A stretch of 64,000 nucleotides of DNA from NCBI GenBank assembly GCA_963725645.1, contig CAVRZD010000002.1, forward strand, positions 145,510 to 209,509, in the 5' to 3' direction. The notes beneath the pieces are model-generated. The model was not told the origin of the DNA, searched no databases, and saw only the letters and a list, made by a program, of their open reading frames with translations. Source of the DNA: an uncultured Actinomycetes bacterium (GTDB lineage Bacteria > Actinomycetota > Thermoleophilia > Solirubrobacterales > Solirubrobacteraceae). Within the stretch, counting starts at the first letter, position 1, and every line of letters starts with the position of its first letter. Shown here piece by piece: positions 1,220 to 50,377 of the stretch. The position numbers and the translations under genes are program-made.

Positions 1220-1289
1220 GGTCCGTTCTCTCCTCCGGTGTGCGCTGGCTCGGTCGCGCGGACCGTACTTGATGGTTCGGCCGCCGCCG

Positions 1290-2364: not shown

Positions 2365-3402
2365 CGGAGGCCCTCCGGGACCGTCGCCAACCCGATCTGG
2401 CCGTCGACCTCGCGCCGCGAGCGCTTGGCCTCGACGTCGAGCCAGCAGCGGTCGAGGTGCGCCGGGCCGACGCGCGCCTCCAGCGCCGGCAGCTCCGTGC
2501 AGCGGTCGAACGCGTGCGGGCAGCGGGGGCGAAACGCGCAGCCCTCGGGCCGGTGCGATCAGCGACGGCGGCGCGCCGGCGATCGAGGGCAGACGCCCGC
2601 CGGCCGGCCGGTCCAGGCGCGGAATCGACCCGAGCAGGCCCCACGTGTACGGGTGCTGCGGGTCGTAGAAGATCTCGTCGCGCGCGCCCGCCTCGACGAG
2701 CATCCCCGCGTACATCACGAGCACGCGGTCGGCGATCTCCGCCACCACGCCGAGGTCGTGGGTGATCAGGACCACCGAGCCCAGCTCGTCGCGCAGGTCG
2801 TCGAGGAGCGCGATGATCTGCGCCTGGATCGTGACGTCGAGCGCGGTCGTCGGCTCGTCGGCGATCAGGATGCGCGGGCGGTTCGCCAGCGCCATGGCGA
2901 TCATCGCGCGCTGGCGCATGCCGCCGGAGAACTCGTGCGGGTAGGAATCCACGCGCTCCACCGGGTTGGGGATCCCGACCTCGGCCAGCAGCTCGATCGC
3001 GCGATCGCGGGCCTGCGCCGGCGTGACGTCCTCGTGCGCGCGGATCTGCTCGGCGATCTGCCAGCCGACCCGGTAGACCGGATGCAGCGACGTCATCGGG
3101 TCCTGGAAGACCATCGCGATCTCCTGGCCGCGGATCCCGCGCAGCGTCTCCTCCGGCGCGCGCACCAGCTCGGTGTCGCCGTAGTGGATCGAGCCGGAGA
3201 ACTCGGCGTTGGGCGAGCGCGTGAGCCCGAGGATCGTCTGCGCGGTCACCGACTTGCCGCTGCCCGACTCGCCCACGATGGCGAGGACCTCGCCGGCCCG
3301 CAGCTCGAACGACACGCCGTCGACGGCGCGCACCACGCCGTCCTCGGTCGTGAAGGCGACCCCGAGGTCCGCGACGCTCAGCAGGGTCTCGGAGTCAGGC
3401 AT
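2361..3402 (-). pseudogene. Dpp/Opp-type peptide ABC transporter ATP-binding protein (DppD/OppD-like), reading frame broken near 2550
   Basis: Walker A is GESGSGKS, the signature is FSGGMRQR, and Walker B is ILIADEP. After PSLIAP the conserved [17 protein letters not shown] tail is only readable in a shifted frame, ending at TGA 2361-2363. Confidence 0.85.
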
Positions 3403-4356
3403 TGAGCCGGATCCGCGGGTCGAGGTAGGCGTAGGCGATGTCGCACAGCGCCGAGAGCACGACGATGAAGCCGGCCGCGTACAGCGTCGTGCCCATCACC
3501 GGCGGGAGATCGAGGGAGCCCACCGACTGGGCGGCGTACTGTCCCACGCCCTGGAGGCTGAAGATCGACTCGGTCAGGATCGCGCCGCCGCCGATCGCCG
3601 CGCCGAAGTCCAGCCCGAACAGCGTCACGACGGGAATCAGGGCGTTGCGCAGCACGTGGCGGACGAGCACGCGGCGCTCCGACAGGCCCTTGGCGCGGGC
3701 CGTGCGCACGTAGTCCTCGTTGATCGTGTCGAGGATGTTCGACCGCAGCAGCCGCGAGTAGAAGCCGATGAAGAGGATCGAGAGGGTGAACCAGGGCAGG
3801 ATCAGATGGGTGAACCAGCCCCACGGATCCTCCGTCAGCTTCACGTAGCCGCCGGGCGGGAACAGCTGGATTCGATCGGTCAGGTAGTAGAGCAGCAGCG
3901 CCCCGACCCAGAACACGGGCAGGGAGATGCCGATCATCGACGAGCACCGTCAGCACGCGGTCCGGCCAGCGGGTCGCGTAGACCGCGCTGAGGACGCCGA
4001 AGAGCACGCCGAAGAACATCCAGATGACGGCGGCGCCGATGACCAGCGACGCGGTGGCGCGGGATGCCGCGAACGATCTCGTCGCGCACGTTGGTCTGGT
4101 TGGAGTAGGAGATCAGGCTGCCGTCGGCGATCTTCCCCATGAGCCGGGAGTACTGGACGTAGATGGGCCTGTCGAAGCCGTAGTCCCTCCTGACCTGCGC
4201 GCGCGTCGCCTCGTTGGCGCTGCGGCCCGCGATCCGCTGCACCTGCGCCGTCGTGTTCGTGCCGGGGAAGACGTAGAAGATCAGGAACGTGACGATCGAG
4301 ATCGCGACCAGGACGAACGCCATGTTGATCAGCCGCCGGACGGCGAAGCGCAGCAT
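3395..4356 (-). pseudogene. Dpp/Opp-type ABC permease (DppB-like), two frame breaks (about 4057 and 3940)
   Basis: The protein is spread over three frames: MLRFAVRRLINMAFVL...EIVRGIP, then ATASLVIGAAVIWMFFGVLFGVLSAVYATRWPDRVLTVLV, then IGISLPVFWVGALLLYYL...EDYVRTARAKGLSERRV (EAA-type loop). The ATG at 4356 overlaps the upstream TGA. Confidence 0.85.
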
Positions 4357-5415
4357 CAGGCCGTCTCCCGGCGCCGCACCTTCGCCCGCGGGTCGAGCGC
4401 GTCGCGCAGGCCGTCGCCGAACACGTTGAGCGAGAGCACGGTCAGCGTGATCGCCAGGCCCGGCACGATCGTCAGATGGGGCGCGGTCGAGCAGGAGGTT
4501 GACGCCCTCGCCGATCATGTTCCCCCACGACGGCGTCGGGAGCTGGACGCCGGCGCCGAGGAACGAGAGCGCCGCCTCGGTCAGGATGTTGTTGGCCACG
4601 ATCAGCGTGCCGAACACGAGGATCGTGGAGGCGAGGTTGGGCAGGAGCTCGCCGAACATGATCCGCAGCGGGCCCTTGCCCTGCGCCGACGGCCGCCTCG
4701 ACGAAGTCCTTCTCCCGCAGCGAGAGCACCTGCCCGCGCACCGGGCGGCCGAGGTAGGGGATGAAGATGATCCCGATCACCAGCGTGGGGATCCACAGCG
4801 AGCCGCCCTCGATGTCGATCGGCCCGAGGTGCAGGCCGCCGATCGCGAGCGCGGTGCCCAGCGCGATGCCGAGCAGGAGGACGGGGAAGGACCAGATGAC
4901 GTCGAAGGTCGTGCGCACGACGACGTCGGTGCGCCCGCGGAAGTAGCCGCCGGCGAGGCCGAGGATCACCGCGATCACCGTGGTGATGAGGGCCGAGCCG
5001 AAGCCGACGAGCAGCGAGTTGCGCCCGCCGTAGAGCAGGCGCACCATCTCGTCGCGACCGTTCTTGTCGGCGCCCAGCAGGTAGCGCCGGCTGAACCCGG
5101 GCCCACCGGCTTGGTCTCCGGCGGCGGGGTGACGACGTAGAGGCGCTTTCCGCCGCGCTCGAACGTCCCGGTCAGGTTGTTGTCGTTGGGCCCGACGTGG
5201 GCGACCTGATCGGCCCACAGCGGCGCCGCGAGGCAGCAGGCGACGATCGCGACGAACACCGCCAGTGAGGCCATCGCCACCCGGTTGCGGCGCAGGCGCC
5301 GCCAGGTCGCGCGCCAGGGCCCGCTTGCCTGGATCGGCCGGCCCTCGGTCGCCGCCACGCCGGGGACGGCGGGGCTGGGCTCGAACGCGAACTCGGCTGA
5401 GGGCTCCCGGGCCAA
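4356..5415 (-). pseudogene. Dpp/Opp-type ABC permease (DppC-like), three frame breaks (about 5097, 4690, 4485)
   Basis: The N-terminus runs MAREPSAEF...TKPVGPG. The core is FSRRYLLGADKNGRDEMVRLLYGGRNSL...REKDFVEAA. It then continues QGKGPLRIMFGELLPNLAST...[10 protein letters not shown], and the tail is [35 protein letters not shown]. Each segment lies in a different frame. Confidence 0.85.
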
Positions 5416-5431
5416 GGGCTTCAGCCCCGCG

Positions 5432-7081
5432 CTACTTCAGGCAGAAACGTCCCCAGTCGTGCGTCGCCAGCGGCCAGTCGTCGCCCTTGCAGTTCTGGAA
5501 GTCCATCCGGTCAGAGAAGAACGTGCTCTGCTTGCGGGTGCCGTAGATGCCCCAGTAGGCCTGCTGCTGGGCGTAGCGGTCCAGCTGCGCCCACTCCTTC
5601 TCGGTCTGCGACGTCAGCGGCTTGGCGGCGACCGCGTTGATGCGGCTGGCGTAGGCCGTGTTGGAGGCGTTGTAGGAGTAGTTGTTGTTGCCCGTGGCGA
5701 CGACCTTGGACGGGTTGAGCAGGACGTCGATGAAGTCCGCGGGGTGCGGGTAGTCCTCGAACCAGTCCGCGAAGCCCGTCTGGGCCTTCAGCGAGCGGTC
5801 GCCGACCGTCGTGAAGTAGGTGTCGGCCGCAATCGTCTTGAGCTTGGCGTTGAGGCCGATCTTGTTGAGCAGGTCGGTGTAGTAGGCCATCGTCTGCGGC
5901 GTGGGGTCCTTGTCGTCGCCCCAAACGGTGACCTTTGCGCCCTGCGCGCCCGCCTGGGCGATCAGCTGCCGGGCCTTCTGCAGGTTCGGGCCGGGGTAGA
6001 GGTTCGGGCTCGGCTCGTAGCCGGGGATCTGCGGGGGCAGGATCCCGTGCGTCTTGGAGAGGAATCCCGCCTGGGTCCGGTTCAGCGCGTCGAAGTCCAG
6101 CGCCCAGTTGACGGCCTGGCGAACCGCCAGCTTGTCGAACGGCGGCGCCTCGGTGTTCATGAACATGTAGAAGGTCGAGGTCGTCGCGAACTCGCGGTAG
6201 CGCTTGCCGGTGTATTTCGCGCGGATCTCCCCGGCGCGGTCGGCCGTCGGGTTGTCGATCATGAAGTCGGCCTGGTTGTTGGCGATCTGCGTGACCTGGG
6301 CGGAGATGTTCCCGACGATCTTCACGTTGATGCCGCTGACCTTGCCGACGTCGACGACGGTGCCCTTCAGCGCCGGCGAGAAGTGCGGGTTCTTGACGAG
6401 CTGGTAGCTGCGGCCCTGGGCGACGTTCTTGATCACGTAGCGCCCCGCGCCGGGCGGCGGATGCTGCGTCTGGTTCTTGCTCGGCGTGCTCGCCGGCACC
6501 ACGCCGGCGAACGGGATCCCCAGTTCATAGGTGAACGCGCCGCGCGGTGCGACCAGGTAGATCGTGATGTCGCCGGTCGCGTCGTTGACGACGATCCCGC
6601 TGATCCCGCCCTTCTTGGTCTTGCCGAACTGCTCGGCGCCGACGATGTTCGTGTAGCCGAGGCCGACGCCCTGGGAATCGGTCGCGATCACGCGCTCGAT
6701 CGAGTGCTTGAAGTCGGACGCCTTGATCGGCGTGCCGTCGGAGAAGGTGAGGTTCTTGCGCAGCCGGAGCTGGTAGGTCTTCCCGCCGTCGGAGATGCGG
6801 GGCAGGGCCTCGGCGAGCGCCGGCTGCACCTTCGACCCGGCGGCGCCGGGCGCGTGCACGAAGCCGACGAGACCCGGATAGACCTGCGCGAGCGGCTCCC
6901 AGCCGTCGACGGTGTAGGAGAGCGCCGGGTCCAGGTAGTCGGGGAAGTTCGTCTGGAGGATCGTGATGCTGCCGCCGGTGCGACCGGTGCTGGACGACCC
7001 GCAGGCGCCCAGGAGGGCCGAGAGCAGCAGTGCGGCGGCGGCCGCGGCGGCCAGGCGGGCCACGATCCCTCGTCTCGTCAT
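5432..7081 (-). CDS. ABC transporter substrate-binding lipoprotein, family 5 (DppA/OppA-like)
   Basis: Intact 549-aa ORF. It has a signal peptide with a lipobox (LLSALLGAC) and typical SBP_bac_5 features (YTVDGWEPL, LTFSDGTPI, FYMFMNT). It sits upstream of the permease/ATPase genes on the same strand. Confidence 0.9.
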   Translation of the reverse strand: MTRRGIVARLAAAAAAALLLSALLGACGSSSTGRTGGSITILQTNFPDYLDPALSYTVDGWEPLAQVYPGLVGFVHAPGAAGSKVQPALAEALPRISDGGKTYQLRLRKNLTFSDGTPIKASDFKHSIERVIATDSQGVGLGYTNIVGAEQFGKTKKGGISGIVVNDATGDITIYLVAPRGAFTYELGIPFAGVVPASTPSKNQTQHPPPGAGRYVIKNVAQGRSYQLVKNPHFSPALKGTVVDVGKVSGINVKIVGNISAQVTQIANNQADFMIDNPTADRAGEIRAKYTGKRYREFATTSTFYMFMNTEAPPFDKLAVRQAVNWALDFDALNRTQAGFLSKTHGILPPQIPGYEPSPNLYPGPNLQKARQLIAQAGAQGAKVTVWGDDKDPTPQTMAYYTDLLNKIGLNAKLKTIAADTYFTTVGDRSLKAQTGFADWFEDYPHPADFIDVLLNPSKVVATGNNNYSYNASNTAYASRINAVAAKPLTSQTEKEWAQLDRYAQQQAYWGIYGTRKQSTFFSDRMDFQNCKGDDWPLATHDWGRFCLK

Positions 7082-7186
7082 GACGTCCTCTCTCGCGAGC
7101 TCGTCTGAGCACTGTAATTCCCGCTCACGGTGCGTTTCCCTGCCCTGCGCGGGATGTGGAGGTTCCGCGCGTACAATCGCCCCCGA

Positions 7187-7226
7187 GCCCCGATAGCTCA
7201 GTCGGATAGAGCGACTCCCTCCTAAG
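7187..7226 (+). pseudogene. tRNA-Arg(CCT) 5'-half fragment (acceptor 5' strand through anticodon loop)
   Basis: 39 of 40 nt are identical to positions 1-40 of the intact tRNA-Arg at 10065-10138. The sequence diverges right after CTCCTAAG. No 3' anticodon stem, T-arm or acceptor 3' strand follows. Confidence 0.8.
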
Positions 7227-7265
7227 AATCGGAGGCTCGTGCTTGGTCGTACGTCCCCACCATGA

Positions 7266-7904
7266 TTGGAAAGGACTCAACAACTGCTCTCGAACCCTGA
7301 AGGCGCAGGTCGTACAGGCGCATCGGACGACGGCGGTTCCGCTGTCTTCACATTCCGGGCACGACCAGGCCAAGAAGTGGCCCTCGCGCAATGGGCGCGC
7401 CGCATCGTGAGCGCCGCCCGCCAATACGAGGGGAACATCGCCGCCACCGTCATCGGCCCGGACCAGAGCGGGGAGTACCGCGTCGTGCACCACTTTCGTG
7501 ACCAGGCGACCTTGGAGTCGTGGCTTTCCTCTCCTCAACGAGCCGTACTGCTCCAAGAGGCAGGATCCCTCCTCGAAGCACCGCCGGCTGTGGAGCGGAC
7601 GGGGCTGGAGACCTGGTTTCGCCTGCCCTCGGATGGCCGAGTCATCGTGGCGCCCCCGCGATGGAAGATGTGGTTGACCTCCGTGCTCGCCATCTATCCC
7701 CTCGTTCTCGCCTTTATGGCGTGGGTAAACCCCCACATCACGGGATGGCCGCTTGTCGTCAGGGCGGCGGTCCTCCCACTCGTGCTGCTATCGCTCATGA
7801 CGTATCTGGTGATGCCAAACGTCACCCGTCTGCTCCGCCCTTGGCTAGCCGGAAGGCACCAGCAGCGGCCGGATTCCCCATCGTCGATCAGCAATCCTCG
7901 CTGA
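7266..7904 (+). CDS. ABM (antibiotic biosynthesis monooxygenase-like) domain protein with C-terminal membrane helices
   Basis: 212-aa ORF with a TTG start. The N-terminal region (FTFRARPGQEVALAQWARRI...HFRDQATLESWLSS) is ferredoxin-like/ABM-type. Two or three TM helices follow (WLTSVLAIYPLVLAFMAW, VVRAAVLPLVLLSLMTYLV). Confidence 0.6.
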   Translation: MERTQQLLSNPEGAGRTGASDDGGSAVFTFRARPGQEVALAQWARRIVSAARQYEGNIAATVIGPDQSGEYRVVHHFRDQATLESWLSSPQRAVLLQEAGSLLEAPPAVERTGLETWFRLPSDGRVIVAPPRWKMWLTSVLAIYPLVLAFMAWVNPHITGWPLVVRAAVLPLVLLSLMTYLVMPNVTRLLRPWLAGRHQQRPDSPSSISNPR

Positions 7905-7987
7905 GGAATCCGGCGTTACGCTGGACGCCGTGGTCAGAGCTTGCCGAGATGCCTGAAACGACCTCTCAGCGGGCAATGTAGGGTTGG

Positions 7988-8800
7988 ATGAGCATGGCTC
8001 GAGCTCTGCGGTCCCCCGTCGCCGGCGCCGCGGTAGACGCCTACGACCGACACGTCGGCCGTTACGGTGTCGAGCTCGCCCGGGAAATGGTCCGGGTGAC
8101 CGGCGTCCGGGCGGGCCAGCGGGCGCTGGACGTGGGCTGCGGGACGGGTGCGCTGACGGTCATGCTGGCGGAGGTTCTCGGGGCGGGGAACGTCGCCGCG
8201 ATCGATCCCTCCGAGCGCTTCGTCGCGGCTTGCCGCGACCGTGCACCGGGTGCCGATCTGCGTGTGGGGATCGGGGAGGAGCTTCCCTGGAGCGACGCCG
8301 AGTTCGACGCCGTGCTCGCGCAGCTCGTCGTGTACGGCATGAACGACGCCCGCCGCGGTGCGGCGGAGATGCGGCGTGTTGCGCGGCCAGGCGGCGCAGT
8401 CTCGGCGTGCATCTGGGACTTCGAGGGGGGCATGCCTCTCCTGCGGGCGGTCTGGGATTCCGCCCTCGACGTCGACGCGGAGCTCGCCCGTTCGTTCGGG
8501 GCCGACAAGCCCGACCCGTTCTCGCGCCCGCATGAGCTCGAGGAGCTCTGGTGCACCACTGGGTTTGAGGGGGTCGAGCTCGGCCAGGTCGACGCCGGTG
8601 CCGACTACGCGGACTTCGATGACCTCTGGTACCCGTTCGCGAACGGCGTCGGCAATCTCGGTCGCTTCCACGAGGCGCTCGATGAGGCGGGGCGCAAGCG
8701 CTTCAAGCACGGCGCGGCCGAGCGGCTCGGAGCGCCGTCCGGTCCATTCCGCCTAACAGCGAGGGCCTGGTACGCGCGCGGTACCGTCCCGGCCGGATAG
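7988..8800 (+). CDS. class I SAM-dependent methyltransferase
   Basis: Motif I is LDVGCGTGAL. Post-I is AAIDPS. The Methyltransf_11-like core reads FDAVLAQLVVYGMNDARRGAAEMRRVARPGG. Confidence 0.8.
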   Translation: MSMARALRSPVAGAAVDAYDRHVGRYGVELAREMVRVTGVRAGQRALDVGCGTGALTVMLAEVLGAGNVAAIDPSERFVAACRDRAPGADLRVGIGEELPWSDAEFDAVLAQLVVYGMNDARRGAAEMRRVARPGGAVSACIWDFEGGMPLLRAVWDSALDVDAELARSFGADKPDPFSRPHELEELWCTTGFEGVELGQVDAGADYADFDDLWYPFANGVGNLGRFHEALDEAGRKRFKHGAAERLGAPSGPFRLTARAWYARGTVPAG

Positions 8801-9019
8801 CGGCGCCCGGCTGCTCCTCCGCGCGACGAAGGGCAGCGACGGCTCCGAGATCACGCGGAGGCAGCAGCGCCCGCAACTCGCCTTGCGGACGGCCGATCAG
8901 GGGGATGACCTGAACGTCGGCGACAACGTCTTTCACCTCAACCACAACATCGCGCCCAGCGGACGCTGAAAAGCGATGAATTTGGCTGCGGATCGCGGTC
9001 TCAGCCCGTAACCAATCGA

Positions 9020-9793
9020 TTGGGAGTGGAGATGGGCGAACTGAATCAGGTGGCCGACGGCGTCTGGGTCCGGCAGAGCGAGTGGGTCTGGACCAATTCC
9101 ATCGTCGTGCGCGGCGAGGATGGGTTGATCCTGATCGATCCCGGCATCGACGGTTCCGAGCTGAACGAGCTCGCGGATGACCTGGACCGGCTCGGCATTC
9201 CGGTGGTTGCGGGGTTCTCCACCCATCCCCACTGGGACCACCTGCTCTGGCATCCCCGGTTCGGCGACGTGCCGCGCTACGCCACCGCCGCCGCCGTCCA
9301 CGTTGCCGGTCAGACCCGAGAGCAGCAGCAGGCGGGGGCGGAGGAGGAGGGCGGGTCGGGCATCCCTCTCGACCTGGTCGCGCTCGTCACCCCGCTGCCC
9401 CCTAACAGCGGAGCGGTGCCGGGCGAGATCATCGAGCATCAGGCGCACGCTGTCGGCCACGCCGCGGTCCTCCTCGCGGACCGTGGCGTCCTGCTCGCCG
9501 GCGACATGCTCTCCGACATCCTGATCCCGATGTTCGACTCTCGCCAAGACGATCAGCTCGGCGCCTACGAGACGGCACTCGCCCGGCTGGGCGAGGCCGC
9601 CGGCCACGTCGATGTCGTGGTCCCCGGCCACGGTGCCATCGCCGAGGGTCCCGAGGTGGCGGCCCGCCTCGCCGCCGATCATGCCTACATCGACGCGCTG
9701 CGGCGAGGAGAGGAACCGGTCGACGCGCGTCTGGGTGCGGATTGGGTCTCCGGCCTCCACCGGTCGAACCTGGAGCAGGCCCGAGGGCGGTAG
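9020..9793 (+). CDS. MBL-fold metallo-hydrolase
   Basis: HxHxDH motif (STHPHWDHLLWH). Downstream metal ligands are HAVGH, LAGD and VVPGHG. Confidence 0.8.
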   Translation: MGVEMGELNQVADGVWVRQSEWVWTNSIVVRGEDGLILIDPGIDGSELNELADDLDRLGIPVVAGFSTHPHWDHLLWHPRFGDVPRYATAAAVHVAGQTREQQQAGAEEEGGSGIPLDLVALVTPLPPNSGAVPGEIIEHQAHAVGHAAVLLADRGVLLAGDMLSDILIPMFDSRQDDQLGAYETALARLGEAAGHVDVVVPGHGAIAEGPEVAARLAADHAYIDALRRGEEPVDARLGADWVSGLHRSNLEQARGR

Positions 9794-11790: not shown

Positions 11791-13266
11791 TTACCGTTCT
11801 ATGCGCACGATCCGCGGGTTGCCGAGTCCGGCGGCCCCGAAGCCCAGCACCGTGACGTAGGCGTAGCGCGGCGACAGGGCGGTCGTCCACAGGACGCTGC
11901 GCGCCGGGCGCCGGACGCCGCCGGGGCACGTGCCGGACTCGGAGCCCTGCCGCGTGTGGCCGTGCTCGTGGCCCGCATCGCGGCGGGCGATCGGGGCGAG
12001 GCCGACGAGAAAGCGCTCGCGGCGGCGGTCCGGGAAGCCGAGGCGCAGGAGCTGCGAGCAGTACGACTCGCCCACGTACAGCAGGCGCCCGGCGAGCAGC
12101 GACGGGTTGAGGAACTGGCTCGTCAGCGTGCGGCGGATCACGCGGCCGTGGCGGCGGCGCAGGTCGACGGCGGCGATCGCGCTCCCGGCGTGTCCGGTGA
12201 TGCTGTAGACGACGGTGTCGCCGTTGAGCGCCGGGCGCCCGACCTGGCCGCCACGCGGGCCGGCGATGCGCAGGGCCCGCCGGGGCGACGCGAGCCGTCG
12301 GCCGCGCAGCGCGCCGTTCGCCCGGTACACGAGCCAGCGGTCGGAGACCGCGAGCTCGTCGACCCCGCGCACCCGCACCGTCAGCACGGGCGTCAGGCCG
12401 TCGCGGCGCGCGACGGTCACGAGCGATCCCGCGTGCCACGCGATCATCCGGCCGCCGATCGCCGGGTCGCGCCCGGGTAACGCGACCACGTGGCCGCCCC
12501 GCCGGAGCATTCCCGCGCCGCCCGGCGCCTGCCACGCGAGGTCGTTCCCGGCCGCGCTCGGGTCGGTGCCGCGGGCGACCACGACCGACGCGGAGGCGGG
12601 CCCGGCGGCGATCACCGCCGCGCAGGCCGCCAGGGCGACGGCGTCGGCCAGCCGCAGGCCGCGGAGCACCAGCGGGCGCTCGGCCATCAGGGCCACCGCG
12701 CGCACGCCGATCGGCCGGCGCGCCACGGGCGCCAGGGCGACGACGGGCAGCGCTCGCCCGATCCCGAACCCGAGGCCGATCACGAGCCCGAGCGCGGGAT
12801 CGCCGAGCGCGACGCTGACCCCGGCCAGCGCCCACACGGCGAGCGTGAGCACGAAGGTCGTGAAGCCGAGCCCGAGCAGGATCCCGTACAGCCACGCCGC
12901 CAGCGGCAGCGGCAACAGGCGCCGCCACGGCTCGGGCACCTGGCGGCGCACCTGCGGCACGATCCGCACCCCGCGGGCCTCGCCCAGCGCGGCGGCACCG
13001 GCGATCGCGGCCGCGACCACGACGGGAACGGCCGCGCCGGCGCCGCGCAGCGCGGCGCCCACGACGCTCAGCGTCCCGAAGGTCACCGCGCCGCCGAGCA
13101 GGGCGCCCGCGGCGAACGTCGCGCACGCAAGCAGCGTCACGCGGCGCCGACCGCCCCCGCCGCTCGCGAGCGTGTCGACCATCGAGAACCCGCACGGCGA
13201 CCACGCGCCGGTGACCCCGGCCGCGAGCGCGGTTGCGCCGAGCAGCCACGCCACCGGAGTCAGCAC
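11791..13266 (-). CDS. CcdA/DsbD/MauF-like six-TM domain fused to a putative six-bladed beta-propeller
   Basis: The GTG at 13266 overlaps the upstream TGA (GTGCTGA). The N-terminal ~215 aa is polytopic with AWSPCGFS in TM1. The C-terminal ~275 aa carries six ~40-aa repeats with DPSAAGNDLAW / DPAIGGRMIAW / RPALNGDTVVY / NPSLLAGRLLY type cores. Confidence 0.65.
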   Translation of the reverse strand: MLTPVAWLLGATALAAGVTGAWSPCGFSMVDTLASGGGGRRRVTLLACATFAAGALLGGAVTFGTLSVVGAALRGAGAAVPVVVAAAIAGAAALGEARGVRIVPQVRRQVPEPWRRLLPLPLAAWLYGILLGLGFTTFVLTLAVWALAGVSVALGDPALGLVIGLGFGIGRALPVVALAPVARRPIGVRAVALMAERPLVLRGLRLADAVALAACAAVIAAGPASASVVVARGTDPSAAGNDLAWQAPGGAGMLRRGGHVVALPGRDPAIGGRMIAWHAGSLVTVARRDGLTPVLTVRVRGVDELAVSDRWLVYRANGALRGRRLASPRRALRIAGPRGGQVGRPALNGDTVVYSITGHAGSAIAAVDLRRRHGRVIRRTLTSQFLNPSLLAGRLLYVGESYCSQLLRLGFPDRRRERFLVGLAPIARRDAGHEHGHTRQGSESGTCPGGVRRPARSVLWTTALSPRYAYVTVLGFGAAGLGNPRIVRIER

Positions 13267-13835
13267 GGGACGTGCGTGTCGTAGAACATCGTGCAGAAGA
13301 CCTTGCGGCCGGAGTAGCAGTAGCCCGTCAGGGCCGCGTCGCCGTTGATGCGGTTCGAGTGGTAGGAGCAGCAGTCCATGAGCCGGCGCACGTGGCCACC
13401 GCAGCAGCGATACCAGGAGCCGTCGATCCAGGTGCGAAAGTGACGGTCCCGGCCGGCGCGCTTGCAGATCTTCGTGCGCGGCGCGCTGGGCAGTCGGTGC
13501 CCGTCGGGATCGCGCAGCGCGTGGCCGCGCTCGTCGATCGGGTGGCCGTGGCGATCGATGAGGCGGCCGAGGTCGTCGACCGGGCGGCCGTCCCTCGCCC
13601 GCAGGGGGTAGCCGTGGGCGTCGATGCGCGGAAGCCCGGTGGGGTGCGGGCACGAGGCAGTCGTGAACGTGTGGCCGCAGAAGTGGTACGCCTCGGCCTC
13701 GCCCGGCTTGACCGCGGCCGCCACGAGCCCGCCGGCGGCGAGGCCGACGATCGCCTCGCCGGCGCGCGCGAGCAGGCCTCGGCGGGAGGTGCCCTCGACC
13801 ACCGCGCCACCCGGGCGCGGTCCGGATCCGGCCAT
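13260..13835 (-). CDS. possible independent cistron: Tat-exported Cys-rich protein resembling methylamine/aralkylamine dehydrogenase light chain
   Basis: An internal ATG at 13835 is in frame. The twin-arginine leader is MAGSGPRPGGAVVEGTSRRGLLARAGEAIVGLAAGGLVAAAVKPGEAEA. The mature part has 10 Cys, including WYRCCGG and MDCCS. Confidence 0.45.
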   Translation of the reverse strand: MAGSGPRPGGAVVEGTSRRGLLARAGEAIVGLAAGGLVAAAVKPGEAEAYHFCGHTFTTASCPHPTGLPRIDAHGYPLRARDGRPVDDLGRLIDRHGHPIDERGHALRDPDGHRLPSAPRTKICKRAGRDRHFRTWIDGSWYRCCGGHVRRLMDCCSYHSNRINGDAALTGYCYSGRKVFCTMFYDTHVPC

Positions 13836-14705
13836 CGAGACCACGGGCTCGCGCGCCCGCCGCTCGGCCGTGGCGAGCACGCTCTCGAGCTGCTCCGGCG
13901 AGTTGAACGTTCCCTTCGCGAGCACCGTCCCGTCCAGGCCGAGCGCCACCGCGTACGGGCTGCCGGGGACGTCCAACCCGCGCCAGGCCGCGGCATCGCG
14001 GCGCTCGTCGAACCGGTGGACGGCCACGATCGCCTCGCCCGCGAAATGCTCGACCGCGGGCTCGAGCGTGCGGCACACCGGGCAGCCCTCGGACATGAAC
14101 ACCGCCAGTGCGAGCCGGGCGGACGGAGGCGCGTCGCGCGTCGCGAGCAGCGGGGTCTGCGAGCCGACCTCGGGTCCCTCGTCTGGAATTTCGAGCGCGC
14201 CCCGCGGGCCGAGCCGCGTCGGCCGCTCGCCCAGTCTGCGCGCCAGCGGGACGGCCAGGGCGGCGAGCGCGATGGCGCCGACGAGCGCGAGCGCCAGCCA
14301 GCCCGCGGTCGTCGGCTCGACGCCGCGCAGCCCGGGCACCGCCGCACACGCGCCGGCGAGCGCGATGGCACGAACCACCGCGAGCGGGCCGACGCGCGAG
14401 CGCCCGCCGAGGCAGCCGCACGGCTCGCCGCGGCGCCCGCGCGCGAGCGCGGCGCCGAGGGCGAGCGCGAAGCCGGCGAACAGCCCCGCCGCCAGGTAGG
14501 CGGCCGCGGTTGACCCGAGCGCGAGGCCGACCGCGAGCGCCAGCTCGAGCACGACCGTCGCCCCCCAGGCCGCCCGGCGCACGCCGGCGCGGCGGAGCCC
14601 GTACGTCGCCAGCGCGGCCTGGCCGGCGACAGGATCGCGGAGCTTGAGCACGGCCGCGCCCGCGAGCACCGCTGCGAGGATCCAGGCGGCGAGGTCGGCG
14701 ACCAT
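13260..14705 (-). CDS. uninterrupted 481-codon ORF: MauE/DoxX-type membrane domain + thioredoxin-fold CPVC module + Tat signal + Cys-rich amine-dehydrogenase-light-chain-like domain
   Basis: ATG at 14705. LKLRDPVAGQAALATYGL and 4-5 TM helices are MauE-like. VFMSEGCPVCRTLEP is thioredoxin/MauD-like. No stop codon occurs before the Tat-signal module (see next feature). Confidence 0.6.
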   Translation of the reverse strand: MVADLAAWILAAVLAGAAVLKLRDPVAGQAALATYGLRRAGVRRAAWGATVVLELALAVGLALGSTAAAYLAAGLFAGFALALGAALARGRRGEPCGCLGGRSRVGPLAVVRAIALAGACAAVPGLRGVEPTTAGWLALALVGAIALAALAVPLARRLGERPTRLGPRGALEIPDEGPEVGSQTPLLATRDAPPSARLALAVFMSEGCPVCRTLEPAVEHFAGEAIVAVHRFDERRDAAAWRGLDVPGSPYAVALGLDGTVLAKGTFNSPEQLESVLATAERRAREPVVSMAGSGPRPGGAVVEGTSRRGLLARAGEAIVGLAAGGLVAAAVKPGEAEAYHFCGHTFTTASCPHPTGLPRIDAHGYPLRARDGRPVDDLGRLIDRHGHPIDERGHALRDPDGHRLPSAPRTKICKRAGRDRHFRTWIDGSWYRCCGGHVRRLMDCCSYHSNRINGDAALTGYCYSGRKVFCTMFYDTHVPC

Positions 14706-14769: not shown

Positions 14770-15741
14770 CTACGGGTACACGTCGATCCGGGTGCCGTAG
14801 CGGACCCAATTGTAGATCGAGCCGGCGTCCGGGATCGGTGTGCGGATGCAGCCGTGGCTGGCGGCGAAGGTCGGGACGTCGTGGTAGCCGTGCACCGCGT
14901 AGCCCTCGACGAAGTAGTTGGAGTCCAGCATGCCGAGCGAGTTGTAGCCGGGCGTCTTCGAGTACACGTAGTAGGAGCCGAGGATCGTGGGCGTCGACGG
15001 CTTGCCGGAGGACACGTGGTAGACGCGGTAGGGCTGCCCGTTGGGGTTCATCAGCGCGAGCACCTGGCGCGAGAGGTCGGCCTCCATGTGGCGGCCGTGG
15101 CCCGGGTACTTGGCGTGGAAGCTGCCGCGGCCGCGCGCGAGCTGACGGTAGATGCGCGACGCGGCCGGGCCGCCGCGCGCCATCCGGTTGACCTTGCGGT
15201 AGGCGATCACGGCGCGGCCCGTCTGGTTGTCGAAGTGCCCGCTCAGATGCACGGCGTACCCCTCGCCCCGCAGGCGCCGCTGCAGGTAGCGCACGCGCAG
15301 CCCGCCCGAGCCGTAGCCGGCGTAGGGCTGGATCGCGTCGATGCGGGCGCGGGCCGACATCCCCGCCTGCGCCGCGGTGGCGGCGTGCACCGCGCTGACG
15401 CGCACCCGGCCGGGCTGCGGCAGGCGGAACGTCGTGGACGCGCTGCCCGCCCCGCGCCGCGCGCGGCGGATCGGGACCGTGACGCGCTTGAGGACGTGCC
15501 CGTTGCGGCTGAACGTGATCTTCACGGCTTGGCCGGGCACGAACTTCGAGACCGTCGCGACCAGCTTCCAGGTCTGGCGCGACAGCGCAATCGGATGACC
15601 CCCCACGCGGTAGAGGCGCGGCGTCGAGAGCGTCAGCTTGCCGGCCGTCGGGCGGGCGGGCGTTGTGGCGGCCTGGGCGCCTGCCCCGGAAGCGGTGACC
15701 AGCGCGGCGACCGTGCCGAGGAGCGGGGCGATCCGGCGCAC
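14770..15741 (-). CDS. L,D-transpeptidase with peptidoglycan-binding domain
   Basis: It has a signal peptide. The PG_binding_1-like segment is LQRRLRGEGYAV..GHFDNQTGRAVIAYRK. The YkuD catalytic motif is HGYHDVPTFAASHGCIR. Confidence 0.85.
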   Translation of the reverse strand: MRRIAPLLGTVAALVTASGAGAQAATTPARPTAGKLTLSTPRLYRVGGHPIALSRQTWKLVATVSKFVPGQAVKITFSRNGHVLKRVTVPIRRARRGAGSASTTFRLPQPGRVRVSAVHAATAAQAGMSARARIDAIQPYAGYGSGGLRVRYLQRRLRGEGYAVHLSGHFDNQTGRAVIAYRKVNRMARGGPAASRIYRQLARGRGSFHAKYPGHGRHMEADLSRQVLALMNPNGQPYRVYHVSSGKPSTPTILGSYYVYSKTPGYNSLGMLDSNYFVEGYAVHGYHDVPTFAASHGCIRTPIPDAGSIYNWVRYGTRIDVYP

Positions 15742-15799
15742 GCGGAGAATCTTATGACACTCGCAGACGGTCAGGACCGGCTGGCGCGTCCGCGGTCGT

Positions 15800-16672
15800 C
15801 TACGCGAGGCGTGGTCGGCGACGCACCCCGCCGAACGGGAGGACGAGCCCGGAGATCACGGTCAGCGAGGCGACCATGAGCACGGGTATCTGCCAGTCCC
15901 AGTGCTGGGAGACGCCAAACGCGAGGCTGTTGTTGAGCGCGTGCAGCGCGATGCAGGGATACAGCGACCCCGTGCGCCAGTAGAGCAGGCAGAGAACGAA
16001 CCCGAACACCGCGAGCGGCACCAGGAACGGCGCGGGCGCCGAGCCGACGTGGATCGCGCCGAACACCAGGCCGGTGAGGATCGCGGCGGGCCACAGGCCC
16101 TTCCACGAGCGCAGCGCGCCGAAGAAGTAGCCGCGGAAGAACAGCTCCTCGGCGATCGGGGCGATCACGCAGACGAGCACCGCCACCGCCAGCAGGGCGA
16201 CCGTGCTCTCGTCCGCGCCCAGCTCGTCGGGTAGCCGGTCCTTGGACTTGATGTCGAGCGCGGCGACCCACACGGCGCTGAAGGCGATGAAGCTGATCCA
16301 CGCCAGGGTCATCCAGCCCAGGGCCGGCCAGAAGCGCGTGGCGCGCAGGCCGAACTGCCACGGCCGCGGCCGGCGCGTGATGCGGGCGAACAGCAGCGCT
16401 GCGCCGATCAGCGCCGCGTCCTGGAACGCCGTGGCGAGGATCTCGACGCTCGGCGGCGGGTGCTCGAGCGAGGCGCCGCCGGCGGCGGCGACCGCGCCGA
16501 TCAGGATCGCGCCGAAGACGGCGACGACGAAGGCGGCGATCAGGGCGACCGGCGCCGTCCAGGCGGGCCAGCGCGGCTGCGGCGACAGGCCCTCGGGGAG
16601 CTCGGGGAGCTCCGGCGGCGGTCCCGGCGGCGGGAGGGCCACCGGGGGAGGCGGCGGTGGAGGGAGGTTCAT
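15800..16672 (-). CDS. CPBP family intramembrane glutamic endopeptidase (CAAX protease-like)
   Basis: Polytopic. Motifs are EELFFRGY, FGAIH and HALNN. The N-terminus is Pro-rich. Confidence 0.85.
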   Translation of the reverse strand: MNLPPPPPPPVALPPPGPPPELPELPEGLSPQPRWPAWTAPVALIAAFVVAVFGAILIGAVAAAGGASLEHPPPSVEILATAFQDAALIGAALLFARITRRPRPWQFGLRATRFWPALGWMTLAWISFIAFSAVWVAALDIKSKDRLPDELGADESTVALLAVAVLVCVIAPIAEELFFRGYFFGALRSWKGLWPAAILTGLVFGAIHVGSAPAPFLVPLAVFGFVLCLLYWRTGSLYPCIALHALNNSLAFGVSQHWDWQIPVLMVASLTVISGLVLPFGGVRRRPRLA

Positions 16673-16684
16673 GCCGGATCCAAT

Positions 16685-17368
16685 TTACGGGCCGAGGGCC
16701 TCGAGCTCGCGCAGCGAGCGGATCGTCCAGACGGGCTCCGCCAGCGCCGGCGCATCGCCGTCGCGGACCACGAGCACCGGCGCGATCCCGGCCGCGCGCG
16801 CGCCCTCGACGTCCTCCTCGACCCGATCGCCGACGTGCGCCGTCTCCGCGGCGGGCGCGCCGGCCAGCGTGAGGGCGTGGGTGAACGCGGCCGGGGCGGG
16901 CTTCGCGGCGCCGAGCTCCGCGGAGCTGACGATCCCGTCAACGAGCCGGCCGAGTCCGTCTCCCGCGAGCTGATCGTGCAGGGAGACGTCCCAGTTGGAC
17001 ACGACCACCAGCCGCAGGCCGCGCCGCCGCAATTCCGCGAGGGCATCGGGCACCTCGGGGTAGGGACGGAAGCGGAGCGCCGCGATCATCGCTTCCTGGA
17101 GGTCGTCGAGCGACAGCGCGTCCCGCACGCGCTCGGGCAGCGCAGCCCGCATCTCCTCGGCGCAGCGCCGGCGCAGGCGCGCGACGCCGGCGCGGTCGCC
17201 GCCCTCGAGGTGGTGCGCGCGGTAGTGGGTGATCTCGGCCACCAGCGCGGCGCCGGCCTCCGCGTCGTCGACCTCCACGCCGCGCGCGGCGAGCTCGTCG
17301 CGCAGCGCCGGCACCGGCGGCTCCAGCTCCAGCAGCGTGCCGAGGGCGTCGAGCAGCACCGCGCGCAC
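16685..17368 (-). CDS. HAD-superfamily hydrolase
   Basis: Motif I-like is AVLLDALGTL, motif II is VVSNW, and motif IV is VGDRVEEDVEGARAAGI. The start is uncertain: GTG 17368 is preferred because motif I then sits near the N-terminus, and the ORF is open to 17404. Confidence 0.7.
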   Translation of the reverse strand: MRAVLLDALGTLLELEPPVPALRDELAARGVEVDDAEAGAALVAEITHYRAHHLEGGDRAGVARLRRRCAEEMRAALPERVRDALSLDDLQEAMIAALRFRPYPEVPDALAELRRRGLRLVVVSNWDVSLHDQLAGDGLGRLVDGIVSSAELGAAKPAPAAFTHALTLAGAPAAETAHVGDRVEEDVEGARAAGIAPVLVVRDGDAPALAEPVWTIRSLRELEALGP

Positions 17369-17396
17369 GCGGCGTGGAGGTCCGGCGGAGGCCCGG

Positions 17397-18722
17397 CTAC
17401 GCAACCCACTCCCAGGCCGCGAACTGCGCCGAGGCGATCGCCAGCATCGCCGCCGACGCCGCGAGCGCCGGGCGCCGCCAGCCGCGCCGGCGCACGACCA
17501 GCGCGAGCCACAGGTGCAGCGGGAACAGCACCGCCAGGAAGCGGGGGAACGACATCAGCGGCTGCGGCGCGACCGGGTAGGAGAGCGGGAGCGCGAGCGC
17601 GGACACCATGTAGCCGCCGTAGGCGACCGGCAGCCGCCGCAGCGCGCCGACCGTGCCGGCCAGGCCGAGCACGAGGAACGCGAACAGGATCAGGTTCTGG
17701 GCCGCGATCACGAACGGGTCGCCGGCCGCCGCCGCGAAGTACACGGGCTCGCGGGACCCGGACAGCAGCTGGCGGGCGCCGTCGAATGCGGCCGATGCGC
17801 CGTCCCACACGCCCACGAACGGTCCCGCGAACACGCGCATCCACTCCGCCTGGGCGGTGAACGGCGCCGCCGGGTCGCCGCCCATCAGCGCCAGGTAGGC
17901 GGCGAACGCGCCCAACCCCAGCGGAACCAAGCCGATCCACAGGGCGTCGGCGCGCACGGGAAAGCGGGGGCGCCACGTGCGCCCGCGCGGGGCGGTGGGC
18001 GCGGGCCCGCGCGGCCCGTACAGGTACAGCAGGGCGAGCGGCACGACGAGCACGACCCCGGCACTGCGGGAGCTCGCGGCGAGCATGCCGAGCACTCCCG
18101 CCCAGGCCCAGCGATCCACGCGCGCGGCGTAGATCGCACCCACCGAGAGCGCCAGGAAGACGGACTCGCTGTAGACCGCCGAGAAGGAGTAGGCGGCGGG
18201 GAACACCGCGAGCAGCATCACGGCGGTGCGGGCCGCGTCGGCGCCGATCTCCAGCGTGGCGAGCCGGTGCAGGATCGTCAGCCCGACGAGCAGCGCGCCC
18301 AGCGACACGGCGATGCCGGCCACGACCGACGAGCCGGTCAGCGGCGACAGGACCGCGACGAGCAGCGGGTAGAGCGGGAAGAAGGCCGCGCGGCCGGACT
18401 CGCGGTAGCCGTCGTTTGCGATCGCCAGGTACCAGACGGCGTCCCAGCGCGCGGCCGGCGCCACCAGCCAGTCCGCGGCGCCGCCGAAGGGCGCCGTCAC
18501 GGCCCCGGGGTCGAAGTCGCGCCAGCGCCCCGACCGCCCCAGCACCGCGAGGCCGGCCAGGCCGCCCGCCCACACGACGAGTCGGCTCCACCACAGCGCG
18601 CGCCAGGCCGAGGCGAGCGCCGCGCGCCACTCGACCGGCAGCGCGGCGAACGAGCGCGCCGCGGGTGCGGCAGCGGCCGCTGGACCGGGCGGCTCGGTGA
18701 CAGGTGTGCGCGGGCGCTCCAT
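17397..18722 (-). CDS. polytopic membrane glycosyltransferase, PIG-V/mannosyltransferase-like
   Basis: ATG at 18722 (a TTG at 18776 is also possible). It has more than 8 TM helices. The loop motif WDAVWYLAIANDGY is typical of PIG-V-like GT-C enzymes. Confidence 0.6.
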   Translation of the reverse strand: MERPRTPVTEPPGPAAAAAPAARSFAALPVEWRAALASAWRALWWSRLVVWAGGLAGLAVLGRSGRWRDFDPGAVTAPFGGAADWLVAPAARWDAVWYLAIANDGYRESGRAAFFPLYPLLVAVLSPLTGSSVVAGIAVSLGALLVGLTILHRLATLEIGADAARTAVMLLAVFPAAYSFSAVYSESVFLALSVGAIYAARVDRWAWAGVLGMLAASSRSAGVVLVVPLALLYLYGPRGPAPTAPRGRTWRPRFPVRADALWIGLVPLGLGAFAAYLALMGGDPAAPFTAQAEWMRVFAGPFVGVWDGASAAFDGARQLLSGSREPVYFAAAAGDPFVIAAQNLILFAFLVLGLAGTVGALRRLPVAYGGYMVSALALPLSYPVAPQPLMSFPRFLAVLFPLHLWLALVVRRRGWRRPALAASAAMLAIASAQFAAWEWVA

Positions 18723-18849
18723 GTCCCGCCCGATCTTCCCACCCCGGGGCGCCAGCCGAATTGCCGAACCGCGCAACGAGTCCGGCTAGAATCCCAGACT
18801 CTCGCGACCGCGCATCCACCGCGGTCGCACTCGCGTAATTGGACTGCGC

Positions 18850-21010
18850 ATGAGCCGCCGACAGCGACAGAAGCGCCGCAAGCAGCGCAATGGTGGATTC
18901 CGCAAGGGCTTCTTGGTCGCCCTGAGCGTCGGGATCGTGGCCGGGTTCCTGGGCGTCCTCGGCGTGGTCGGCTACATCATCGGCGTCGCCGCCTCCGCGC
19001 CCTCGATCGACTCGCTCAAGCCGATCGACCACGGGCAGACGTCGGTCGTCTACGCCGCCGACGGCAGACGCCTCGGCTTCATCACCTCCGACGAGCTGCG
19101 CACGCCCGTGCAGACCTCCGTCATCCCCACCATCCTCAAGCAGGCCACCGTCGCGATCGAGGACCAGCGCTTCTACCAGCACAAGGGCGTCGACTACGAG
19201 GGCATCCTGCGCGCCGGCCTGAAGAACCTCGAGTCCGGCTCGACCGTGCAGGGCGGCTCGACGATCACGATGCAGCTGGTGCGCAACCTGTACACCGGCG
19301 ACCGCAACCGGAACTTCCAGCGCAAGATCCGCGAGGCCAAGCTCGCCGAGGAGCTCGAACGCGAGCACAACAAGACCTGGATCCTCACCAACTACCTCAA
19401 CAACGTCTCCTACGGCACCGTCGGCGGATCGACGGCGGTCGGCGTCGCCGCCGCCGCGCGAGTCTTCTTCGACAAGCCGGTCAGTCAGCTCAACCTCGTC
19501 GAATCGGCGACGTTGGCCGGGCTGCCGCAGGCGCCGTCGCTCTACAACCCCTTCCGCGATCCGCGGGTCGCGATCAAGCGCCGCAACAACGTGCTCAGCA
19601 AGATGGCGTCGCTGCACATGATCTCCCAGCAGCAGGCCGCCGACGCCAAGCGCCAGCCGCTGGGCGTGCGCCAGAACACGTACTACTCCGCCAAGCGCGA
19701 GAACTACTTCTTCGACTACGTCAAGGAGCAGCTGATCGAGCGCTACGGCGTCACCACCGTGCGGAAGGGCGGCCTGAAGGTCTACACGACCATCGACCTC
19801 AAGCTCCAGAGCGAGGCGCGCAACGCGATGGAGGGCGTGCTCAACGAGTCCGGCGACCCGTCCTCGGCGATCGTGTCGATCGATCCGCGCAACGGCTACA
19901 TCCGCGCGATGGCCTCGACGGGCTCCTACGGGGCCAACAAGTTCAACTACGCCGCGCAGGGCCACCGCCAGCCGGGCTCGACGGCCAAGATCTGGGTGCT
20001 GATGACCGCGCTGCGCAAGGGCATCGACCCCAACTCCACGACCTACAACTCCCACCCGCTCGACCTCAACACGGCCTACGGACCGTGGAAGGTCAGCACC
20101 TACTCGCACAGCTACGGCGGGAACATGAACCTCGTCCAGGCCACGCTCCAGTCCGACAACACCGTCTTTGCCCAGCTCGACCTCGACGTGGGGCCCGACG
20201 CGGTGCGCCAGACCGCGTATGACATGGGGGTCACGACCAAGCTCGACGGCTATCCCGCCGAGGGCCTTGGCGGCCTGTCGCTCGGCGTCTCGCCGCTGGA
20301 GATGGCCAACGCCTACGCCACGATCGCCGACGGCGGCTACCGCAACAAGCCGATCGCGATTCGCAAGGTCGTCTTCCCCGACGGCAAGTCCGAGGACCTC
20401 GGCCGAGCCCAAGCGCAAGAAGATGTTCTCCGACGCGGTCACCTACGAGGCGACGAAGATCCTCGAGCAGAACATGCAGTCCGGCACCGCGACGCGCGCC
20501 GCGATCAGCTGTCCCGCGGCGGCCAAGACCGGCACGACCGACGACTTCACCGACGCGTGGCTGGACGGCTTCACGCCGCACCTGTCGACGTCGGTGTGGG
20601 TGGGCTATCCCAACTCGAAGGTCCCGATGCTCGACGTGCACGGGATACAGGTGAACGGCGGGAGCCTGCCGTCCCAGATCTGGCACGACTACATGTCGGT
20701 GGCCGTTGGCAACGACTGCGCCGACTTCCCGCAGCCCACGGAGTCCTTCAACGCCCAGCCGTTCTACGGGTCCTACGCCGCCACGGGCGGGCGCGGGTCC
20801 GGCAGCCAGTACGACTACGGCGGTGGTGGTGGCGGCGGCACCTCGAACGGCCGCGGGAACGGGAACGGCGGCGGTGGCGGCACCGGCGGCGGCAACAACC
20901 CCGGCGGCGGTGGCGGCGGCTACAACAACCCGAACCTGTACGAGTCGCCACCGCAGCCCGCGCCACGCGTGCAGTCGCCCAGCAGGGGCACCGGCGGCAC
21001 CGGCCAGTAG
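18850..21010 (+). pseudogene. class A penicillin-binding protein (PBP1A-type transglycosylase/transpeptidase), frame broken near 20400
   Basis: GT51 motifs are EDQRFYQHKG and GGSTITMQL. Transpeptidase motifs are STAK and SDN. After DGKSEDLG the KTGTTDD motif and the Gly/Asn-rich tail continue in ORF 20168..21010. Length mod 3 = 1. Confidence 0.85.
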
Positions 21011-21074
21011 CCGACGCGCTCAACCGTAGCTCCACCCCTACCGCGAAGCGGTACTAACGGCCCACCCGGGCGGA

Positions 21075-50376: not shown

Positions 50377-50377
50377 G

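Follow-up and report, generated by a model that had tools for sequence, protein, structure and literature searches.

The 64,000-nt stretch analyzed here (referred to below as the window) comes from contig CAVRZD010000002.1 of an uncultured Solirubrobacteraceae bacterium and carries, on its minus strand, a two-gene cassette related to the methylamine utilization (mau) genes. ORF1 (positions 13260 to 14705, 481 amino acids [aa]) is a MauE-MauD gene fused in frame with the gene of a small cysteine-rich protein, and ORF2 (11791 to 13266, 491 aa) encodes a MauF homolog fused to a beta-propeller. The GTG start of ORF2 (13266-13264) overlaps the TGA stop of ORF1 (13262-13260) inside the sequence GTGCTGA (13260 to 13266, minus strand), an arrangement pointing to translational coupling that had already been noticed in an initial annotation made from the sequence alone; comparable overlaps of 4 to 7 nt occur at four related loci (L001, L002, L003, and L004). 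ORF1 and ORF2 are real genes, since the G+C content at third codon positions (GC3) of ORF1 is 0.94, the ORF2 product is 100% identical to a 491-aa protein with the same start (P0121) on record on a 1.44-Mb contig, the pair of 481-aa and 491-aa genes recurs in a separate Logan assembly (run ERR12037368), and each gene has about 2,000 or more homologs. The gene products are publicly annotated as "hypothetical protein" or as MauE only, and literature searches returned no description of the cassette, of a MauF-propeller fusion, or of a selenoprotein MauF. We read the cassette as a mau-type module, probably for maturation, in which the client and the domain fusions are new.

MauE, MauD, and MauF homologs in the cassette

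The N-terminal part of ORF1 (residues 3 to 122, positions 14340 to 14699, minus strand) is a MauE membrane domain, which matches PF07291 above the gathering threshold (E value of 1.7e-14, 54.6 bits against a cutoff of 27). It possesses a CGC motif of the CXC type (residues 96 to 98, 14412-14420) within EPCGCLGG, located between the hydrophobic segments at approximately residues 69 to 87 and 105 to 123, that is, in the loop between transmembrane helices 3 and 4 (TM3 and TM4), and the residue following the CXC is Leu instead of the usual Phe. MauE has been shown in a preprint to be a DsbB-like disulfide-forming oxidase that uses the CXC motif as its active site, and it complements Escherichia coli dsbB (Gonzalez et al., bioRxiv 2026, 10.64898/2026.03.05.709764). 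By analogy, the window MauE is predicted to be a DsbB-like CXC membrane thiol oxidase. The next segment of ORF1 (residues 136 to 277, 13875 to 14300, minus strand) comprises a fifth transmembrane anchor and a thioredoxin fold with a CPVC motif (residues 208 to 211, 14073-14084). It aligns by BLASTP with the genuine MauD of Paracoccus denitrificans (E value of 5e-13, 30% identity over 172 aa) in an alignment that takes in both the anchor and the CPVC motif, and it shows weak matches to Pfam thioredoxin models and a match to TIGR02661 (E value of 1.7e-8) that scores 34.2 bits against a cutoff of 188.6. As judged from these alignments, the segment is a MauD homolog below the NCBIfam equivalog level. 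Both assignments agree with the MauE-type domain and the MauD- or TlpA-like CPVC thioredoxin first proposed for ORF1.

The N-terminal part of ORF2 (residues 1 to 225, 12592 to 13266, minus strand) is a polytopic membrane domain, identified by hhalign and BLASTP, with the motif WSPCGFS at residues 22 to 28 (13183-13203; AWSPCGFS, residues 21 to 28). A 111-sequence alignment of this domain (A3) matches P. denitrificans MauF in hhalign with a probability of 98.7% and an E value of 3e-16 over 167 columns, and the pairwise BLASTP comparison of ORF2 with this protein gives an E value of 1e-5. The motifs WSPCG[FY]S, PQxRxQVP, LYGxxLGL, and GRxLPV are common to both. The empty Pfam and NCBIfam scans of ORF2 do not argue against MauF, because genuine MauF itself matches no Pfam or NCBIfam entry and no curated MauF model exists. 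The 222-aa membrane domain shows no match to the CcdA/DsbD models PF02683 and PF13386 at an E value of ≤10. Of the mixed CcdA/DsbD/MauF-like character at first ascribed to ORF2, the MauF part therefore stands and the CcdA/DsbD part does not: as far as profile comparison can tell, the domain is a MauF homolog, and a relationship with CcdA is not demonstrable.

The C-terminal part of ORF2 (residues 226 to 491, 11794 to 12591, minus strand) forms a six-bladed beta-propeller that is predicted to be extracytoplasmic. In the AlphaFold2 model of ORF2, which has a predicted local distance difference test (pLDDT) score of 89, helices cover residues 4 to 225 and are followed by 24 strands arranged in six four-stranded blades, and Foldseek retrieved propellers only (E value of about 1e-6). 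The six-bladed propeller predicted from the letters is thus recovered in the model, whereas the underlying repeat motif, described as [DN]P[SA]-type in six copies, fits four of the six repeats in a loosened form. The propeller shows no similarity to P. denitrificans MauB (hhalign probability of 0.2%), and the ORF2 profile has no match among Protein Data Bank (PDB) sequences. An HEHGH sequence (residues 434 to 438, 11953-11967), which resembles the HExxH motif of metal-binding and protease sites, was dropped as a lead because it is conserved in only about 60% of homologs and lies in a low-confidence loop (residues 430 to 450). In addition, the last propeller blade carries a cysteine pair, C403/C447, that is conserved in about 55 to 65% of the homologs.

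The MauF motif cysteine is replaced in some relatives by an in-frame TGA codon. At nine loci the motif reads WSP-U-G[FY][AS] with TGA at the U (selenocysteine) position, whereas the other 56 occurrences have TGC or TGT. The TGA loci comprise eight metagenomic sequences of a divergent subfamily (L100, 4241-4243; L101, 2465; L102, 1669; L103, 1818; L104, 6678; L105, 2605; L108, 1589; and L109, 4474) and a Thermomicrobium roseum megaplasmid (NC_011961, about position 479325 on the complement strand; L006, 8744). The annotated MauF-like coding sequence of T. roseum (L006, 8756-9349) begins just after the TGA and appears to be truncated there, with the true start likely at MTLWLVPLALASGCSALWSP-U-GYS. 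A hairpin, CCCCGC-AGGCT-GCGGGG, is kept approximately 28 nt downstream of the TGA with one compensatory and two wobble changes. No selenocysteine insertion sequence (SECIS) family was found by Rfam in the TGA loci, and no selenocysteine tRNA was found in the stretches examined. Directly upstream of the cassette in L100, and in the same orientation, lie selA (PF03841, E value of 2.6e-112) and selB (EF-Tu GTPase and SelB beta-barrel domains) (L100, 1-2663). The MauF proteins of the nine TGA loci are probably selenoproteins, while the window encodes the cysteine form, with C25 of ORF2 at this position. Alternation between selenocysteine and cysteine is a well-known signature of redox-active residues, and its occurrence at the motif, together with the adjoining selA-selB genes in L100, suggests that MauF is redox active.

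The small protein and its twin-arginine leader

The C-terminal domain of ORF1 is a mature small protein of 142 aa (residues 340 to 481, 13263 to 13688, minus strand), in keeping with the cysteine-rich domain of about 145 aa that had been delimited at the outset. Downstream of the leader it has exactly 10 Cys, two CC pairs and TWIDGSWYRCCGG among them, and its motifs are FCGH, a D-x-x-G-x-P-h repeat present six times, WYRCCGG, DCC, and RINGD. In both subfamilies, that of the window and the divergent one, the 10 Cys, FCGH, W141-Y-R-C-C, D-C-C, and R-I-N-G-D are invariant, in contrast to the TWIDG Trp and the CPHP His, and no conserved Trp follows the CC motifs. In the AlphaFold2 model, the mature part mostly has pLDDT scores of >90. 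Residues 70 to 117 (13485-13628) consist of six tandem units of 7 to 9 residues with the pattern [RD]-x-x-G-x-[PA]-[LVI], which are modeled as a ladder of short beta-bridges. The protein represents a new family for which there is no Pfam model and no solved-fold match. Matches of its middle region to giant eukaryotic repeat proteins (DUF3659, plectin rich) reflect the short D-x-x-G-x-[PV]-h repeat and are functionally uninformative, and matches to COP9 subunit 6 (E values of 0.01 to 1) are attributed to chance.

The initial annotation had likened this domain to the light chain of methylamine and aralkylamine dehydrogenases (MADH and AADH), which bears the tryptophan tryptophylquinone (TTQ) cofactor, and had expected two conserved Trp residues. 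A MauA query sequence, 100% identical to P. denitrificans mauA, was used to fetch seven verified MauA/AauA proteins. The light-chain model PF02975 has no match in the window domain or among 119 relatives, even at an E value of ≤10, and searches of PDB sequences with phmmer and with the family profile (hmmsearch) returned no light chain. When the full-length families are aligned with MauA/AauA by hhalign, only the leaders align (33 columns, probability of 93%), and with the mature domains the probability falls to 0.4%; resemblance is expected between any two twin-arginine leaders. The best Foldseek match in the PDB has an E value of 0.34, and no light chain is found among the 50 best matches, small irregular disulfide-rich folds being hard for Foldseek. 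On these comparisons, the small protein is not a recognizable MADH/AADH light chain, and the proposed kinship is not upheld. A Trp-Trp TTQ is excluded because W141 is the single invariant Trp. Many of the 50%-identity cluster representatives of the family (P0250, P0254, P0259, P0275, P0286, P0287, P0294, and P0345) are frameshift chimeras, in which correct N- and C-terminal segments surround out-of-frame stretches rich in Arg, Pro, and Ala; they inflate the apparent diversity of architectures and are not usable for widening the small-protein profile.

The small protein is preceded by a leader of the twin-arginine translocation (Tat) type (residues 291 to 339, 13689 to 13835, minus strand), which extends from the internal Met291 of ORF1 (ATG, 13833-13835) to AEA and is the point at which stand-alone homologs start. 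TSRRGLL occupies residues 306 to 312, and the predicted cleavage site lies between AEA and YHF (residues 337 to 342). The family consensus is TSRRGFLARVG, in which R18 is invariant, and the h-region is weakly hydrophobic, with a Kyte-Doolittle value of 1.54 compared to 1.9 to 2.5 for transmembrane helices. With its RR motif, moderate h-region, and AxA site, the leader is a predicted Tat signal peptide, and the description of a textbook twin-arginine leader is apt.

The union of MauE, thioredoxin, and client in one ORF, described from the window, is true of the window but is not the general architecture. In most relatives, ORF1 corresponds to two genes, one for MauE-MauD (about 295 to 300 aa) and one for the small protein (about 185 to 195 aa), and the GTG or ATG of the small gene overlaps the upstream stop in another frame, with an 8-nt overlap; a 92%-identical relative (P0001/L004) is split. 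The in-frame fusion recurs in L012 and in P0002/L003, which have different linkers, and in L115, a Joint Genome Institute metagenome sequence whose flanking genes are syntenic with those in the window. Fused forms of 447 to 475 aa are present in about nine 90%-identity clusters; the fused relatives include P0422-P0438 and the more distant P0241 and P0242. Fusion was scored by identity of the frame with that of the thioredoxin match; an open upstream frame was rejected as a test because a G+C content of 73% keeps every frame open. The fusion is genuine, although only a few lineages have it. The whole leader (RR, h-region, and AxA) is kept in every fused MauE-MauD-client protein, while the ATG at M291 is kept in the window and not in L012 or P0002.

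Conservation and genomic context

When one genome per GTDB species was scanned, 561 stretches were found to encode a relative, and the figures for gene order and identity given here refer to the best 80 of these. All 80 are from metagenome-assembled genomes (MAGs) of the Solirubrobacterales, Gaiellales, or Thermoleophilaceae type, with Solirubrobacteraceae MAGs being the closest named relatives. The order MauE-thioredoxin-small protein-MauF-propeller is kept in essentially all 80 loci. Identities to the corresponding window segments range from 61 to 87% for the small protein, 44 to 89% for MauF, 44 to 86% for the thioredoxin, 41 to 82% for MauE, and 29 to 82% for the propeller, and the small protein is thus the best-conserved part of the cassette. 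In the divergent subfamily, whose small proteins are 43 to 50% identical, the same order and the MauF-propeller fusion are retained. In a reverse check, all three of the MauE-MauD homologs sampled were followed by the other two genes, with different flanks. The expectation that the two ORFs would be conserved neighbors is thus borne out, and the operon behaves as a unit, because its order and its start/stop overlaps are maintained, the reverse checks agree, and the flanking genes vary between lineages.

Two Gaiellaceae-type loci, L016 (approximately 6560-7415) and L090 (6539-7426), encode the propeller alone after the small gene, with the MauF domain missing and no MauF match elsewhere in those stretches. 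The stand-alone propellers begin with an N-terminal signal peptide (ending in GGAQA before AQV and in GEARA before SAP, respectively). Since the adjacency is kept and a signal peptide is present without MauF, these loci tie the propeller to the small protein and place it outside the membrane.

The 10 genes next to the window cassette are unrelated to it. Among the loci compared, no gene for MauG, a cytochrome, amicyanin/azurin, or another cupredoxin lies within the cassette or is conserved on either side of it, and no MauJ, MauM, MauN, or MauR gene is found among the neighboring genes. The absence of MauG, amicyanin, and cytochrome genes from the whole window, as originally stated, holds near the cassette, where there is no CxxCH ORF, but the window has one such ORF, at 49678-50418. 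This ORF (minus strand), which contains QSGCLACHKIG, is the sole high-GC3 CxxCH ORF in the window and lies 35 kb from the cassette. Upstream of the cassette (14770-21057) are genes for a YkuD L,D-transpeptidase, an Rce1-like CAAX protease, a haloacid dehalogenase (HAD) hydrolase, a PIG-V-like mannosyltransferase, and a class A penicillin-binding protein. This cell envelope gene order is shared with L115, and NadA/Fpg or other genes occupy the position in other lineages. NadA and Fpg, common in one order only, are treated as synteny and not as functional partners.

Proposed maturation of the small protein and relation to known systems

The cassette seems, on balance, to encode a dedicated extracytoplasmic maturation system for the new small protein, which would be docked on a propeller tethered by MauF. 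The small protein would be the client, exported through its twin-arginine leader, and the MauD-like domain may put five disulfides into it outside the membrane. MauE would then reoxidize the MauD-like domain in a relay like that of DsbA and DsbB, and MauF might add a second redox-active cysteine (selenocysteine in some relatives), perhaps for reduction or isomerization. The matured small protein may stay docked on the propeller, and the resulting combination of a propeller with a disulfide-knotted small subunit would resemble methylamine dehydrogenase architecturally without being related to it by descent. The conservation of the small protein and its 10 invariant Cys mark it as the likely payload, and a dedicated rather than a general oxidase is indicated by the recurrent fusions of MauE-MauD to the small protein, the most conserved component. 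The evidence favors what was at first only a fallback explanation, a redox maturation cassette for a cysteine-rich secreted protein, and the mau-like parts list on which the initial annotation was founded is complete for MauE, a MauD-type thioredoxin, and a MauF homolog.

These three homologs are common to the cassette and the mau/aau clusters, such as mauFBEDACJGMN of P. denitrificans. The mau/aau clusters likewise combine a small cysteine-rich exported protein that has a long twin-arginine leader with a propeller partner, and they hold the helpers and the client in one operon. In contrast, the client of the cassette is outside the MauA family and has 10 Cys rather than 12 and a single invariant Trp; its propeller is six-bladed, not seven-bladed, and, unlike MauB, is fused to MauF; and its MauE and MauD form a single polypeptide. 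The T. roseum megaplasmid cluster (L006) is a further non-proteobacterial case with a MauE fusion, a CPPC MauD-like protein, and a MauF homolog (A3 profile, E value of 9e-10). Its clients, however, genuinely belong to the MauA light-chain family (A2 profile, E value of 1e-43) and have both Trp positions, and its MauF, with TGA as the motif codon, is not fused to a propeller. This cluster (L006, approximately 5900-6330 and 717-9349) encodes two MauA-family light chains, of which one is annotated and the other, in frame 2 of 5766-6343 (SCSDWFRCNQRGCLCSCLGGSDSSCPPGT), is not. Further products of the cluster are three paralogous propeller-like hypothetical proteins (about 400 to 456 aa) and a 596-aa fusion of a propeller-like N-terminal region with MauE.

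Several points weigh against dedicated maturation. The docking of the small protein on the propeller is inferred, the structures having been predicted as monomers. In the fused forms, that of the window included, the Tat leader comes after a thioredoxin domain predicted to be already outside the membrane, so that simple Tat targeting is insufficient; internal initiation at M291, a role of the leader beyond targeting, and Sec-mediated translocation of the whole tail are each possible. Proteins exported by Tat have usually folded or taken up a cofactor while still in the cytoplasm, which is awkward to combine with disulfide formation outside it, and the same paradox applies to true MauA. Finally, co-location need not mean dedication, because MauE reportedly acts as a generalist oxidase and is mostly found without MauA, which occurs in only about 10% of the MauE-bearing species, and 8.2% of MauE entries are fused to a thioredoxin superfamily domain (10.64898/2026.03.05.709764). 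The window MauE resembles these generalist proteins in its CXC between TM3 and TM4, its fusion to the thioredoxin superfamily, and the absence of MauA, but it differs from them in that MauE-MauD is locked with MauF and a specific cysteine-rich protein, to which it is sometimes fused.

The same properties of MauE, including its complementation of E. coli dsbB (10.64898/2026.03.05.709764), would suit a housekeeping disulfide system in which MauE-MauD is the general DsbB/DsbA pair, MauF-propeller is a DsbD-like arm for reduction or isomerization, and the small protein is an accessory or regulatory component or just an abundant, cotranscribed substrate. This explanation is unlikely, though the near-universal and apparently single-copy occurrence of the cassette in the lineage (561 stretches in species representatives) agrees with it, and the selenocysteine/cysteine site of MauF suits a thiol-disulfide oxidoreductase. 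Like DsbD, CcdA, and ScsB, ORF2 has a polytopic domain with a conserved (S)PC-type cysteine and an extracytoplasmic fusion. However, its membrane domain matches no DsbD/CcdA or DsbD_2 model, and its extracytoplasmic part is a propeller rather than an Ig-like or thioredoxin domain. Further points against a general system are that the oxidase has repeatedly become joined in one polypeptide to this single protein, that the position of the small gene between the two redox genes is constant, and that the most conserved part is the small protein and not the enzymes.

A second alternative, which we regard as decidedly doubtful, is that the cassette encodes a quinoprotein dehydrogenase whose light chain is the small protein, with a protein-derived quinone or cross-link cofactor at the invariant Trp beside the vicinal cysteines (for example, a Cys-Trp cofactor like cysteine tryptophylquinone [CTQ]), and whose heavy chain is the membrane-held propeller. 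All three biogenesis factors of the MADH small subunit are present, as is a propeller partner, the leader aligns with MauA leaders, W141-Y-R-C-C and D-C-C are invariant, and the conservation of the small protein is very strong. The quinohemoprotein amine dehydrogenase offers a precedent, in that its gamma subunit is a small cross-linked cysteine-rich subunit on a propeller and its CTQ cofactor is formed from Cys and Trp. This enzyme, likened here by description only, depends on the radical SAM protein QhpD, a protease, and a flavoprotein, none of which is found in or near the cassette. Against a quinoprotein also stand the lack of any sequence, profile, or fold likeness to TTQ light chains and the single invariant Trp, which leaves no Trp-Trp TTQ, and the leader alignment is what would be expected of any two Tat leaders. 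No MauG, amicyanin, azurin, or cytochrome gene lies in the cassette or its conserved flanks, but the absence of a nearby MauG is weak evidence against a cofactor because the T. roseum light-chain cluster also has no mauG annotated within 6 kb. The boldest form of this idea is a new extracytoplasmic redox enzyme, universal in Thermoleophilia, in which a subunit of novel fold carries a cofactor or cross-link at W-Y-R-C-C/D-C-C made without MauG, is matured by MauE-MauD and a (seleno)cysteine MauF, and is held by the propeller; we consider it a long shot worth stating. The least probable alternative is a metal or metal cluster protein with Cu, Fe, or Zn ligated by Cys and His, which would fold in the cytoplasm, leave through Tat, and have its ligand cysteines controlled by the thiol redox genes, as a Tat leader typical of cofactor-bearing proteins, the invariant FCGH, the common CPHP, and 10 invariant Cys with conserved His might suggest, together with an RZ-type zinc finger model that weakly matches 48 of 119 members (best E value of 0.008); yet H64 of CPHP is not kept in the divergent subfamily, the Pfam matches are far below threshold, no solved metalloprotein is matched, and a dedicated oxidizing MauE-MauD pair implies that the cysteines end as disulfides.

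To our knowledge, MauE, MauD, and MauF have since the 1990s been known only as helpers for the small subunit of one enzyme, and no mechanism has been assigned to MauF. The preferred explanation for the cassette is dedicated maturation of the small protein. Conserved in hundreds of Thermoleophilia species from soil, the cassette introduces a new family of small proteins, whose fold is predicted with confidence but matches no solved structure, and a MauF-propeller architecture that is likewise new. The alternation of selenocysteine and cysteine, with selA-selB adjoining in one locus, is a pointer to the catalytic residue of MauF, and the cofactor-enzyme reading, if true, would provide the first mechanistic role for MauF. 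The three helpers would here serve a second client, unrelated to the first and very highly conserved, in a soil lineage that is abundant yet barely cultured, which makes MauEDF look like a maturation module that is portable and not specific to methylamine.

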